A stretch of DNA of 16,514 bases from a virus (taxonomy: Duplodnaviria > Heunggongvirae > Uroviricota > Caudoviricetes): IMG/VR virus record IMGVR_UViG_2681813234_000010, positions 1-16,514 of that record; one strand, given 5' to 3'. This document shows positions 6,110 through 10,287 of this stretch, piece after piece (position 1 is the stretch's first letter; each line of letters starts with the position of its first letter). The notes under the pieces were generated by a model that was given only the letters and a program-made list of their open reading frames with translations, had not been told where the DNA came from and did no database searches. A program made the position numbers and the translations under genes.

Positions 6110-6838
6110 ATGAACAGAAAGCAATTCATCCAGTCACACGGAGCTACTTGCAGTAACTGGACGTGGAGTTGGTCATTTGTTAACCATGAAAAGAAGATGG
6201 TCATCTTTGGGTCATGGGATGTTGAGAGTGAACAAGAGCGGTCTGTAATACTCCGGGAGAAATGGGAATACAACTCAAACAACAAAAAACAACCGGGATA
6301 CACCCAGGCACTGGAACACATCCGTTTAGCCCATGAAGGCTACGAACTTTACACCTTCAATATGGTTTTCGCAGAACACCCTGAGAATCCTGAAATTGCA
6401 GTAATCAAGGATTTTGAGCGTAAATTAAACAAGCGATATCTTCGTAAAGAAGGTGTTGTTTGGTATGCAGACTTCTTACCTAATCCATTCCCTGATGAAA
6501 TTCCTTCAGGAGAGAGTTTTGTTGAAGGTGCAAAGACTCAAGTAACAGTGAACTACTACGAACGCGATCCAAAGGCCCGACAAGCCTGCATCCAGCATCA
6601 CGGTACTACCTGTAAATGCTGTGGCTTCGATTTTGAGAAGGTCTATGGTACACATGGCCGTGGGTTCATTCATGTACATCACATCAAGCCGCTTCATACG
6701 ATTGGGGAAAACTATGTGGTCAATCCCGTAACAGATATGATCCCATTATGTCCAAACTGCCATGCAATGGTACATCACGGAAGCGAAGTACTTACAATTG
6801 CAGATTTGAAAAAGAAAATGACATTCTGGAGCGAGTAA
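6110..6838 (+). CDS. Zn-finger HNH endonuclease (McrA-like HNH) with an unrecognised ~150-aa N-terminal domain
   Basis: ORF of 242 aa with a good ribosome-binding site. The C-terminus CKCCGFDFEKVYGTHGRGFIHVHHIKPL...DMIPLCPNCHAMVHH is a classic HNH motif with CxxC...CxxCH zinc ligands, as in McrA-type enzymes. The N-terminal domain has no motif I can assign. Confidence 0.7.
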   Translation: MNRKQFIQSHGATCSNWTWSWSFVNHEKKMVIFGSWDVESEQERSVILREKWEYNSNNKKQPGYTQALEHIRLAHEGYELYTFNMVFAEHPENPEIAVIKDFERKLNKRYLRKEGVVWYADFLPNPFPDEIPSGESFVEGAKTQVTVNYYERDPKARQACIQHHGTTCKCCGFDFEKVYGTHGRGFIHVHHIKPLHTIGENYVVNPVTDMIPLCPNCHAMVHHGSEVLTIADLKKKMTFWSE

Positions 6839-7630
6839 ATGGATTTATCACAATTGAGCAACGTCGAATTGATGCAACTGAATCAGTTGACGCTTGATGA
6901 GTTAGAACGACGAGAGGTTATCAGAACCAGAAACAATCCTATCAGTGAGTACACTGAATGGCTGGTTGCGGATAAGATGCAGATGGTACTGGCTGCACCT
7001 AGTACTAAAGGGTATGACGCTACAACAACTGATGATCGAAAAATTCAGATTAAGTCTCGTAAGAATAATTTAAAAAACCAATCATTAATTCTTGGAATTA
7101 TCAGAAATTATGATCTGAACCAATTCGATGAACTCATTGCCGTAATATATAACCATGATTTCTCAATTCGTTATGCCATATCCATACCACATGAATTAGT
7201 GAAGGAATATGGTTTTTATAATGAGCATCAGAATGGGTACACTTTAAGAATAAGCAATTTATTACTTAATGATCCACGTGTAACAGATATCATTGAATTT
7301 ATTGACCCAGACACTGAACGTTCAAAGGAAGATATCACGGTGAAGCCAGATTCAAACACTATCCGGGATGTACAGACAATAGGAATGCAGACGTTTGTTG
7401 AGTACTATCAGTATGTTGAAAGTGGTATGAACACAACTGATCTTGTTGAAAAGATGGTAACTGACCATCCAGAATGGAAGGAAAGTACTGCAAGAACAAA
7501 GGCATCTTCAATGCGAAGAGTATTTAAGAATTGCGACAACGTTGAAGCACTAAAAATCATCTATAAGTCGGATCACCCAGCAATAACGGATGAGATTAAG
7601 AGTAAACTTATGACGCTTTGGGATAAATGA
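6839..7630 (+). CDS. Hypothetical protein with a PD-(D/E)xK-like (Hjc/restriction-endonuclease-fold) motif
   Basis: ATG at 6839 directly abuts the TAA of the HNH gene (TAAATG). EWLVADKMQMVLAAPSTKGYDATTTDDRKIQIKSRK fits an E ... D ... (E/Q)xK nuclease-core pattern. The fold assignment is tentative. Confidence 0.5.
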   Translation: MDLSQLSNVELMQLNQLTLDELERREVIRTRNNPISEYTEWLVADKMQMVLAAPSTKGYDATTTDDRKIQIKSRKNNLKNQSLILGIIRNYDLNQFDELIAVIYNHDFSIRYAISIPHELVKEYGFYNEHQNGYTLRISNLLLNDPRVTDIIEFIDPDTERSKEDITVKPDSNTIRDVQTIGMQTFVEYYQYVESGMNTTDLVEKMVTDHPEWKESTARTKASSMRRVFKNCDNVEALKIIYKSDHPAITDEIKSKLMTLWDK

Positions 7631-7729: not shown

Positions 7730-8041
7730 TCAAAACGGTAATTCTCCCTGCTCACAAAACCATCCATCTTCATCATGCTGCTTATAGACAGAATTCTCAG
7801 TACTCAGATAATGCAAACCTTCCAGTACTGAACTTAGCGGCGTTTCCAGTATGAACACGAAGCAATCACGCTCAATCGTGCCTAACCAGTATGTACCTTG
7901 CTGGTTCTGGAAGAAAACGCGATCCCCATATGAAAACTCATCAAGACTGTATCCCCAATAGCAGACCTTAGCCCATTGGCCTAAATGCTCAAACTGCTGC
8001 ACCCCGCGTTTGATTGCCAGATCAAAACCGTTCTTGCCCAT
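7730..8041 (-). CDS. Hypothetical protein (103 aa) in a GC-richer island
   Basis: ORF with ATG at 8041. Its composition matches the surrounding GC-rich segment rather than the AT-rich backbone. No family motif recognised. Confidence 0.4.
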   Translation of the reverse strand: MGKNGFDLAIKRGVQQFEHLGQWAKVCYWGYSLDEFSYGDRVFFQNQQGTYWLGTIERDCFVFILETPLSSVLEGLHYLSTENSVYKQHDEDGWFCEQGELPF

Positions 8042-8146
8042 ACTATGCCTCTACATTAATACTGGTTATTCATACAGTATTGCATCACATTTCGCACAGA
8101 TCCAGCCATGAAAATACTTACCACTAAAAACGGTAGAAATGTAATT

Positions 8147-8216
8147 ATCGATCATTTTAATTTGATCAATGGTTAAAAATGATCAATTATCAATCAGTTA
8201 TGACAACTGAGAGATC
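8147..8216. promoter_or_regulatory. GATC-rich divergent intergenic region with a repeated TGATCAAT motif
   Basis: Four GATC sites in about 67 bp (8150, 8164, 8181, 8213). TGATCAAT occurs twice (8163-8170 and 8180-8187). The region lies between the divergently oriented 7730-8041 ORF and the EAL-like ORF. Confidence 0.4.
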
Positions 8217-8219
8217 AAC

Positions 8220-8729
8220 ATGAAACTCGAACATTGGGCAATTCCGATCACTTCATTGGACGGTATGTTACTCGGCGTAGAGCTGTAAACCCGTGTACTG
8301 ATAAACGGTTGCCAGGTACTGATGGGGGCAGGAAAAGAAAGTGAATATATCCGTCACGTGGTCTATCAGAACCAGTTAAGAATGATTCAGGGTAAAGCCG
8401 CATGGTTCAAAGAAAAGGGGCTGTTGTGCGTGCTCAGTACTGGCACAGGTACACGCTATGAAGATCTACCATTCATACGGTACATGGCTGCTGAACCACT
8501 GCTAACGAACGGTTACGACTTAGTTCGACTAAATAGACGGTTCACTGAAGAACACATAGAGCGGCTGATCTTCCCGGTACTCATCAATAACATCATGCAG
8601 TACTGCGACAAGGTGATCGTACAAGTCAGCAGCAATCGAAATCACAGGATTTTACGAGAGTCGGGGGTATGGGCAGTACAGGGAGAGTACAGGCCAATCC
8701 GCTTTGAACAATGCGAACAACTTCTATAG
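8220..8729 (+). pseudogene. EAL-like (possibly YdiV-type degenerate EAL) ORF interrupted by a single in-frame TAA
   Basis: ATG at 8220 opens MKLEHWAIPITSLDGMLLGVEL, then TAA at 8286-8288, and the same frame continues open to 8729 (170 codons in total). The N-terminal xPIxxxxGxxxGVEL and C-terminal WAVQGEY patterns resemble EAL-domain ends. The family assignment is tentative. Confidence 0.35.
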
Positions 8730-8739
8730 GGATATAACA

Positions 8740-9012
8740 ATGAAAATACTAATCGTCATGTTGGTAGTACTGCTCACAGGCTGCGGCAGCGTACATCACT
8801 CATTCATGGATAAAGCCTTTGTCGGCAACGTTGATAACAAGGCTACAATAGTACTGTTCGACGCTGGCACACGAAACGGGGTGAAGTACTACCGGCCTCA
8901 GTTCCAGAGTGATTGTGGCCGCACCTACAATCCGATTTACCAGGTGGACAATGGCAGTACTACATGCCATATACGAGAGGAAAGAATTAAAAAAATGCAT
9001 CAATATAGATAA
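8740..9012 (+). CDS. Small lipoprotein (90 aa)
   Basis: ATG at 8740 with AGGGA 8 nt upstream. The N-terminus MKILIVMLVVLLTGCGS has a hydrophobic signal peptide and the lipobox L-T-G-C. It starts 11 nt after the EAL-like ORF stop. Confidence 0.55.
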   Translation: MKILIVMLVVLLTGCGSVHHSFMDKAFVGNVDNKATIVLFDAGTRNGVKYYRPQFQSDCGRTYNPIYQVDNGSTTCHIREERIKKMHQYR

Positions 9013-9092
9013 TAAACAAAAATCAAAGAGATAGAATTATTAAATTATTAAGTGTATGTGGCATGATGAAAAATTAAATAATATATAATACC

Positions 9093-9122
9093 CTCATGCT
9101 GTTATTGATAAAACAGCATGAG
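9093..9122. terminator. Bidirectional hairpin terminator between convergent genes
   Basis: Perfect 11-bp stem CTCATGCTGTT (9093-9103) / AACAGCATGAG (9112-9122) with an 8-nt loop and A/T-rich flanks on both sides. It sits between the lipoprotein gene (+) and the DUF3800 gene (-). Confidence 0.55.
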
Positions 9123-9132
9123 AATATATATT

Positions 9133-10287
9133 TCAACGTAGCATGGCTAATGTTCTGGAAATTCTTATTATATCCTTCTCAATATCATCTAAAACAGGAG
9201 TTGAGTTTCTGCTTCGCTCTGCAATTTCTTGCAAAATATATCTATTTAAATGGTTGTTAACATTTTTAGGGTCAAGGTTTTCTGGTGTGGGAACAACACA
9301 GCACTGCCAATAAAAAATCTCATCTTCAAAATGATTTAGCCATTTAGAATGATATTTTTCTTTCGATTTTTTCTTGTTAAGGACATAAATGCTAGCCGCA
9401 GCTACCACATCCGCAATTTGTATACCATGCGTGACTTTAGAATCAGAAAGAATCATTGGCTCAGATAGCTTAAATGTGATCGGGATTTTTTTATCATGAA
9501 AAGTCTCGAACACAATCTCATCATTGCCTATCATCTCATTGAATGAGTCCTGATGAGTAATTAATGGTTTTGAGCTGTCGCATATAGCTCTCAATGTACC
9601 AAACTTACTACTCATATCGCACAGGAGATTATAAAGAGAAGTCGTTGTCAAATCTAATAACCACTTATCAATCCCAGTACCCTCAAGGCCTTCATATTCT
9701 TCTTCAATTATAGAGATGTTATTCTTGGCGAAATCATGAATGTCCATCATAATTTCAGAATTTTTAGAACCAACAACTGGTTCGATAAAACTATTAACCA
9801 ATATTTTACCTCGTGAAAAATCTTCAAATCGCGAATGTAATAGTTCTGAATATTCATCCTTAGCTATTAAAGAAAAATACATTATATTTGAGATGAATAG
9901 GTGAAATTTAAGGTTGTAAAAAATTGAGCTTTTAGCTGCTAATACTGGCTCAAAAATATATTCGAAGAATTTTCCTGAGAGGGCATATTTTTTTTCGTTT
10001 ACAACCACACGCATACGACCACGGAAATGATTAAGTATTTCATCTACGGCTGGTTGAAATCTCTTGCTATTTACGAGAGTGCTACCTTTTAGCTCTTCGG
10101 CTGCGATCGAGTACTTGTTTATTATATAATCAACAAACTGTTTACTTTCCTCATCATCAGTCACGACTGCTGCGTAACTAAAAAAAGGCTGATCTTTTGA
10201 AAGTAAGTTATTACCAGTGAATCCTGATTCATCGAAATATACATTCTTTACCAATTTGGTCATTCCTTTATGAGCTACAATGTGCAT
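9133..10287 (-). CDS. DUF3800-family protein
   Basis: The N-terminal VYFDESGFTG and C-terminal GIQIADVVAAA match the two conserved DUF3800 signature motifs. The start is uncertain: ATG at 10287, ATG at 10263 or TTG at 10254. None has an ideal ribosome-binding site. Confidence 0.6.
   Translation of the reverse strand: MHIVAHKGMTKLVKNVYFDESGFTGNNLLSKDQPFFSYAAVVTDDEESKQFVDYIINKYSIAAEELKGSTLVNSKRFQPAVDEILNHFRGRMRVVVNEKKYALSGKFFEYIFEPVLAAKSSIFYNLKFHLFISNIMYFSLIAKDEYSELLHSRFEDFSRGKILVNSFIEPVVGSKNSEIMMDIHDFAKNNISIIEEEYEGLEGTGIDKWLLDLTTTSLYNLLCDMSSKFGTLRAICDSSKPLITHQDSFNEMIGNDEIVFETFHDKKIPITFKLSEPMILSDSKVTHGIQIADVVAAASIYVLNKKKSKEKYHSKWLNHFEDEIFYWQCCVVPTPENLDPKNVNNHLNRYILQEIAERSRNSTPVLDDIEKDIIRISRTLAMLR

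Follow-up and report, generated by a model that had tools for sequence, protein, structure and literature searches.

A shortened STM1697/YdiV-class EAL-like gene in an Escherichia coli prophage, interrupted by a recent nonsense mutation

The locus and its prophage setting

The stretch of DNA analysed here (16,514 nt, IMG/VR record IMGVR_UViG_2681813234_000010; hereafter the window) represents the left portion of an Escherichia coli prophage that lies beside yeaG and was integrated by a large serine recombinase. We identify it as an E. coli prophage because longer contigs with the same element show it directly adjoining yeaG/prkA, with a flank 99.9–100% identical to E. coli chromosomes. The recombinase gene is followed by small unknown genes and then by the HNH, DUF6998, and divergent 103-aa genes, the broken EAL-like frame described in this report, and a lipoprotein gene. 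The right end holds the DUF3800 gene, a 187-aa gene, the small and large subunits of a lambda-like terminase, and a portal gene. The EAL-like gene is situated in the accessory region, a few kilobases upstream of the terminase and packaging genes. The features referred to below are the following.

1–1236 (the window starts inside the gene): large serine recombinase (integrase), 644 aa, with Resolvase, Recombinase, and Zn_ribbon_recom domains
6110–6838, plus strand: HNH nuclease gene; the weaker match of the two to a restriction enzyme model (mREase_IV, PADLOC E = 4e-8)
6839–7630, plus strand: DUF6998 gene (weak Pfam match), 263 aa; PADLOC "Type II methyl-directed restriction enzyme," E = 1.3e-62
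7730–8041, minus strand: 103-aa gene, phrog_2100, no Pfam match; divergent to the EAL-like gene
8042–8219, no strand assigned: divergent intergenic and regulatory region, with a GATCAWT cluster and a 15-nt inverted repeat
8220–8729, plus strand: mini EAL-like prophage gene, complete frame; 169 codons and TAG, interrupted at codon 23
8220–8285, plus strand: 22-codon N-terminal remnant, MKLEHWAIPITSLDGMLLGVEL; in the AlphaFold2 model, strand 1 and the greater part of strand 2
8286–8288, plus strand: ochre codon TAA; GAA (Glu23) in all close intact alleles
8322–8729, plus strand: 135-codon downstream ORF from Met35, a possible restart product; present in the ORF list and annotated by gene callers
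8740–9012, plus strand: lipoprotein gene, 90 aa, lipobox LLTGC; AGGGA SD overlapping the TAG, same operon
9088–9127, no strand assigned: bidirectional terminator-like hairpin closing the two-gene operon; AT-rich, 16 pairs (minus strand) and 11 pairs (plus strand)
9133–10287, minus strand: DUF3800 gene, 384 aa; phrog_12991, E = 8e-119

A single frame is common to ATG 8220–8222, TAA 8286–8288 (codon 23), ATG 8322–8324 (codon 35), and TAG 8727–8729. A preliminary description of this DNA had proposed that ATG 8220 and the ORF at 8322–8729 are in frame and split only by one ochre codon, and translation of 8220–8732 bears this out. The 510-nt frame aligns end to end and without gaps with an annotated intact 169-aa coding sequence, WP_144021468.1 of E. 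coli AREA_C483; because of this alignment, the layout is not due to chance. Aligned by eye, E21-L-E23-T-R25 falls on the E-A-L-x-R signature of EAL domains, and the ochre codon occupies the third position of this E-L-E-x-R stretch.

The lipoprotein gene had been placed 11 nt past the stop, as in an operon. The operon placement stands, and the SD of the lipoprotein gene overlaps the TAG of the EAL-like gene; the distance needs a small correction, the ATG being at 8740 and the gap therefore 10 nt (8730–8739). The 90-aa lipoprotein has weak matches to PHROG 1754 (E = 8.6e-6) and to the Cor superinfection-exclusion-like PHROG 1119 (E = 0.0024). The pairing of the two genes recurs on viral contig L021, where a lipoprotein with 69% identity (about 6543–6923) lies directly downstream of an EAL-like gene with 46% identity. 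The hairpin at 9088–9127 sits between the convergent lipoprotein and DUF3800 genes, as would suit an intrinsic terminator acting in both directions.

On the other side, the 103-aa gene has homologues in the same divergent position on the distant viral contigs L021 (5485–5802, 64% identity) and L017 (5477–5812, 48% identity), and its product may be a partner or regulator. The intergenic region between the two contains an inverted repeat (8144–8158 and 8176–8190: 15 nt, 87% complementary, 17-nt spacer), and four of the window's 10 GATCAWT sites are packed into a 38-bp span of this region. The stretch 8144–8190 may serve as an operator or as a control site sensitive to Dam. A promoter scan of the plus strand at 8042–8219 returned no site at ≥9/12; the best promoter-like match by eye scores 8/12 (TTGATC, 17 nt, AATTAT). 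Rfam searches of the upstream region gave no family and no c-di-GMP riboswitch.

Out of 5,426 complete E. coli genomes, one (AREA_C483) carries a close copy, with the region 95% identical, and a megablast search of the INPHARED phage collection found no match. A recombinase gene is annotated beside yeaG/prkA in two of five complete E. coli genomes (14EC007 and AREA_C483), among the matches listed. The AREA_C483 prophage (L001, NZ_CP123310.1 2154982–2174626) is heavily degraded: It carries insertions of IS3, IS5, and ISSen4 as well as a group II intron, and its terminase is split. Its EAL-like and lipoprotein genes are nonetheless intact. Its identity to the window is 94–96%, rising to 99.3% at about window position 9035, and this jump indicates mosaic recombination. 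We also note that the adjacent genes at 6110–6838 and 6839–7630 look like a prophage defence pair.

Origin and inheritance of the ochre codon

The N-terminal piece upstream of the ochre codon belongs to the gene. A search of 5.8 billion proteins recovered nine full-length homologues of 169–190 aa, from Escherichia, Shigella, Lelliottia, and Pseudescherichia. All nine start at the equivalent of M8220 and none at the equivalent of M8322, which refutes the suggestion that the upstream piece might be leader sequence. The N-terminus is among the best-conserved parts of the homologues, with A7, P9, T11, G15, L18, and E21 invariant in the nine; Met35 is not conserved in the family, other members having V, A, or I at this site. 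Close intact alleles differ from one another with a dN/dS of 0.11–0.20, and purifying selection therefore acts on the full-length frame where it is open. A 51-aa ORF on the opposite strand (8248–8403) was dismissed on account of this dN/dS in the plus-strand frame and of the full-length homologues.

The TAA faces GAA in the AREA_C483 coding sequence, a single G-to-T transversion at 8286. The base at this position is G in L001, L008–L010, and L011–L014, and T in the window and L002–L007. Codon 23 is open in 12 of 12 IMG/VR viral-contig copies and in all nine full-length database homologues. The nearest intact allele, on viral contig L011 (identical to P0015), is 2 nt from the window's gene. A sister prophage (L008/L009), which occupies the same yeaG site and encodes the intact protein P0001, differs from the window at 10 positions in 15,578 nt (99.94% identity), 8286 among them. 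The TAA is a real, recent, derived point mutation. The idea of a recent inactivating mutation, one of those offered in the preliminary description, is thus supported by the one G-to-T change, by the intact state of this codon in all other homologues, and by the near-identical intact sister.

An alternative is that the TAA arose in sequencing or assembly and masks an intact gene, errors most commonly taking the form of one changed base relative to an intact allele. We looked up the 135-aa ORF by exact match and found it on seven contigs, with six places listed, in four Logan run assemblies (SRR30348657, SRR1815615, SRR11308007, and ERR4843317) and two NCBI assemblies (GCA_903974775.1 and GCA_902847785.1). 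In all six contigs (L002–L007), the 510-nt frame is identical to that of the window, TAA included, and over 4–16 kb they are 99.99–100% identical to it. Outside the gene they vary: One SNP sets L003 apart from the window, and an indel sets apart L005 and L006, so that at least three haplotypes are represented. The TAA is inherited across these haplotypes, which rules out a sequencing error in the window; the change is, moreover, a substitution and not a change in homopolymer length. We consider an artefact very improbable.

Still less probable, to the point of being negligible, is that an ochre suppressor tRNA or programmed read-through lets ribosomes pass the stop, with the full-length protein being made. 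No point in favor of this was found. The window has zero tRNA genes. Programmed recoding was rejected, since every other copy has a plain GAA, with no conserved slippery or read-through context, the opposite of what programmed recoding predicts.

The stop thus stands at a codon that is sense in intact orthologues under purifying selection, and it is seen in independent sequences, as expected for a pseudogene. The gene in the window is a recent, lineage-specific pseudogene allele, and the event itself is ordinary. Annotation of the locus should be changed accordingly, from a 135-aa hypothetical protein to a pseudogene of the 169-aa gene. The TAA copies are all identical within the gene and so carry no evolutionary signal either way on selection for the downstream part.

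Two side observations concern the surrounding sequence. The window and L008 differ by 10 SNPs, and four of these (8070, 8286, 8306, and 8636) fall in the 567-nt stretch 8070–8636, where ∼0.4 would be expected if they were evenly spread. At 8306 and 8636, the base of the sister prophage is not that of the outgroup C483, so decay subsequent to the nonsense mutation does not by itself explain the clustering. Separately, two ORFs of 249 aa and 115 aa take the place of the DUF3800 gene in the TAA contigs L005 and L006, apparently because of their single indel; with this split, the prophage lineage would have undergone decay a second time.

Relationship of the protein to STM1697 and YdiV

The protein is missed by most family models. 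Three queries (the 169-aa protein with Glu23 restored, the 135-aa ORF, and the intact homologue from C483) gave no Pfam match at E ≤ 1, and neither the gene nor its leader was recognised by PADLOC and Rfam. Among PHROGs there is a weak match only, to phrog_32988 (unknown function; E = 3e-5). The C-terminal end of the NCBIfam model for the phosphodiesterase PdeH matches residues 112–168 (the last 57) weakly, at 25.4 bits against a cut-off of 190. With no Pfam match and a PdeH score below cut-off, the protein does not reach the threshold of the catalytic EAL domain (PF00563).

Direct comparison gives a clear relative. With Glu23 restored, the window protein matches STM1697 (PDB 5HXG) in phmmer with E = 9.2e-16, over residues 6–77 and 90–169, and a profile built from the nine homologues matches STM1697 with E = 2.3e-30 and YdiV/CdgR with E of ∼0.03. 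These scores place the protein among homologues of STM1697. The two aligned segments correspond to the two ends of STM1697, in agreement with the earlier remark that the ends of the frame resemble EAL-domain boundaries. On this sequence evidence, a gene that is mostly labelled "hypothetical" and is missed by Pfam is yet clearly related to STM1697. A profile search of 1.84 billion representatives yielded 61 clusters only, comprising short proteins (181–193 aa) and proteins of 219–245 aa, and for at least one of the longer proteins (P0034, 235 aa) the match spans the coordinates that it spans in STM1697.

The predicted structure agrees with the sequence comparison. The AlphaFold2 model of the intact protein P0001 (pLDDT 83, pTM 0.80) has strands at residues 2–11 and 17–28. 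Foldseek ranks STM1697 first (5hxg_A; E = 1.5e-13, TM 0.78), then YdiV, and then canonical EAL domains; there are 80 PDB matches at E ≤ 0.001, and the best 50 of these 80 are all EAL or EAL-like, with STM1697 and YdiV leading. The model thus superposes on solved EAL and EAL-like domains. The label "EAL-like" given to the frame in the preliminary description is therefore correct in a narrow sense: The protein has the degenerate EAL-like fold of the STM1697/YdiV class and is not a Pfam EAL phosphodiesterase.

STM1697, an EAL-like anti-FlhD4C2 factor of Salmonella Typhimurium, is the best match in both sequence and structure, and each of the two proteins consists of a single free-standing domain, lacking both sensor and membrane parts. 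They differ in length (235 aa in STM1697, 169 aa here), ∼50 mid-fold residues (approximately STM1697 81–141) being absent here, and in setting: The gene here is borne by prophages and viral contigs, and the window copy is broken by a stop. YdiV/RflP (STM1344; PDB 3TLQ and 4ES4; 237 aa), also an EAL-like anti-FlhD4C2 factor, has the same degenerate fold (Foldseek E = 3.6e-9, TM 0.78) with only ∼14% identity; its weak profile similarity (E = 0.03) is at the N-terminus. Canonical EAL phosphodiesterases (PF00563; PdeH/YhjH, RocR, and PdeL/YahA) are more distant, with a remote fold likeness (Foldseek E of 1e-5 to 1e-7).

Of the canonical E-x-L-x-R signature, the first Glu and the Arg (E21 and R25) are kept here, as is the C-terminal QG, whereas VQVSS replaces EGVE (motifs read by eye from two alignments, with no motif tool). 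The canonical domain is ∼70 residues longer, and the segment for the DDFGTG metal-binding loop is deleted in the window's subfamily; the corresponding WLDD(L/V)G loop is kept in the 181–190-aa relatives. Because the DDFGTG and EGVE positions are deleted or replaced, the protein is unlikely to be an enzyme and would probably not act as a phosphodiesterase.

The surface by which STM1697 binds FlhD offers a further comparison. The STM1697–FlhD complex has 11 contact residues on STM1697, of which F160 and L173 are central, and their mutation abolishes binding (PMC5622320). The FlhD-contact residues of YdiV differ from those of STM1697 (PMC5622320), and here the short phage-borne family follows STM1697. 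Eight of the 11 contacts can be aligned to the window protein: three identical, three conservative, and two changed.

STM1697 F160, window F108: identical, central residue
STM1697 L173, window L121: identical, central residue
STM1697 Y180, window Y128: identical
STM1697 V147, window L95: conservative
STM1697 K167, window R115: conservative
STM1697 L172, window V120: conservative
STM1697 K175, window N123: changed; K in most relatives
STM1697 H176, window N124: changed
STM1697 V115, L116, and L136: no counterpart, in the segment deleted here

The FlhD-binding helix reads FPLLVKHIRHYCDK in STM1697 and FPVLINNIMQYCDK in the window protein. Overall, we are confident that the locus holds a shortened, catalytically degenerate EAL-like gene of the STM1697/YdiV class, in a two-gene prophage operon, made a recent pseudogene by the G-to-T change at 8286.

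Consequences of gene loss and a putative role in motility

Translation from 8220 terminates after 22 residues. The next in-frame ATG, at 8322, is 33 nt past the stop and has AGGT upstream at 5-nt spacing; the anti-SD duplex predicted for it (−3.9 kcal/mol) is no weaker than that of the native start (−2.9 kcal/mol), the lipoprotein gene having −5.7 kcal/mol. Some restart at Met35 is thus mechanically plausible, and "pseudogene" may overstate the loss. The gene might even work in the shorter form, with (re)start at ATG 8322 giving an active 135-aa protein that has the FlhD-contact helix and keeps up lipoprotein expression. The 135-aa ORF, which is also the one that gene callers annotate, retains every alignable FlhD-contact position, all eight being downstream of Met35. 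However, Met35 is not a conserved residue, no homologue starts there, and the shorter sequences in the cluster are pieces left by frameshifts. The 135-aa product would also be likely to fold poorly, because it lacks residues 1–34, which contribute two long strands to the barrel core and include the six invariant residues. We therefore regard a functional short form as quite unlikely and retain the reading of the TAA allele as a pseudogene.

The stop may also affect the second gene of the operon. If ribosomes did not restart, ∼440 nt of untranslated mRNA would precede the lipoprotein gene, making Rho-dependent polarity possible. The nonsense codon may thus lower expression of the downstream lipoprotein by polarity, unless ribosomes restart at Met35.

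The TAA is not the only disruption of this gene. The 90%-identity cluster contains 58 sequences; in those listed, more than 300 contigs carry an intact 169-aa form and roughly a tenth as many a broken one. The broken forms are the 135-aa ORF, a 158-aa form frameshifted at its C-terminal end (P0018, on 15 contigs), and 94-aa and 81-aa frameshift halves. DNA alignment locates one −1 frameshift in a G5 run on a C483-type allele (L023 about 1700, L024 about 705) and another in a G3 run near codon 57 of a different allele (L025 about 1671). Counting the TAA, the gene has been disrupted independently at least four times.

Repeated breakage of this kind fits the ordinary decay of a dispensable prophage gene, and it could also reflect selection to regain motility. 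In the latter case, loss would be adaptive: Losing a prophage-encoded flagella repressor would restore motility to the lysogen, and disruptions would be selected repeatedly. The number of independent disruptive alleles in one 510-nt gene and the persistence of the TAA allele, which lasted long enough to reach several samples, speak for this. On the other hand, two of the frameshifts lie in homopolymer runs, where mutation is frequent or the change may be an error, and prophage accessory genes with ∼10% of their copies broken are nothing unusual. Where the gene is intact, in addition, it is under purifying selection (the dN/dS given above), and the repressor function is itself putative. Adaptive loss therefore seems to us unlikely, if a little less so than a functional short form, and ordinary decay accommodates the same alleles.

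For the intact protein, an STM1697-like anti-FlhD4C2 function is the most likely one, and we give it an even chance of being correct, or somewhat less. It is proposed because the core FlhD-contact residues and the helix are conserved, and an action of the FlhD type is what we infer from this resemblance. The intact protein would bind FlhD, of the FlhD4C2 master activator, through the conserved helix FPVLI(K/N)NIMQYCDK; flagellar gene expression would then be turned down in the lysogen, and the nonsense allele would lose this putative FlhD-binding, flagella-repressing activity. Among the papers covered, the literature search found no prophage-borne EAL-like or STM1697-like FlhD regulator.

More tentatively, and with doubt about the scheme as a whole, the short (169–190 aa) EAL-like proteins of enterobacterial prophages may form an undescribed class of phage-encoded anti-FlhD4C2 factors. 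Such factors would shut off the flagella of the lysogen, for example against flagellotropic phages or flagellin exposure, from a cassette that includes the divergent 103-aa gene and, in some lineages, the Cor-like lipoprotein gene. The repeated knock-outs in E. coli, the TAA among them, would then reflect selection to regain motility.

The broken frame matters little in itself; the gene family behind it is of more interest. If the short prophage forms act as STM1697 does in Salmonella, where it represses flagella via FlhD4C2, they would represent a case of lysogenic conversion in which the prophage governs the motility of its host. The sister prophages with GAA and TAA, only 10 SNPs apart, would in that case provide a ready near-isogenic pair for testing such control of motility.
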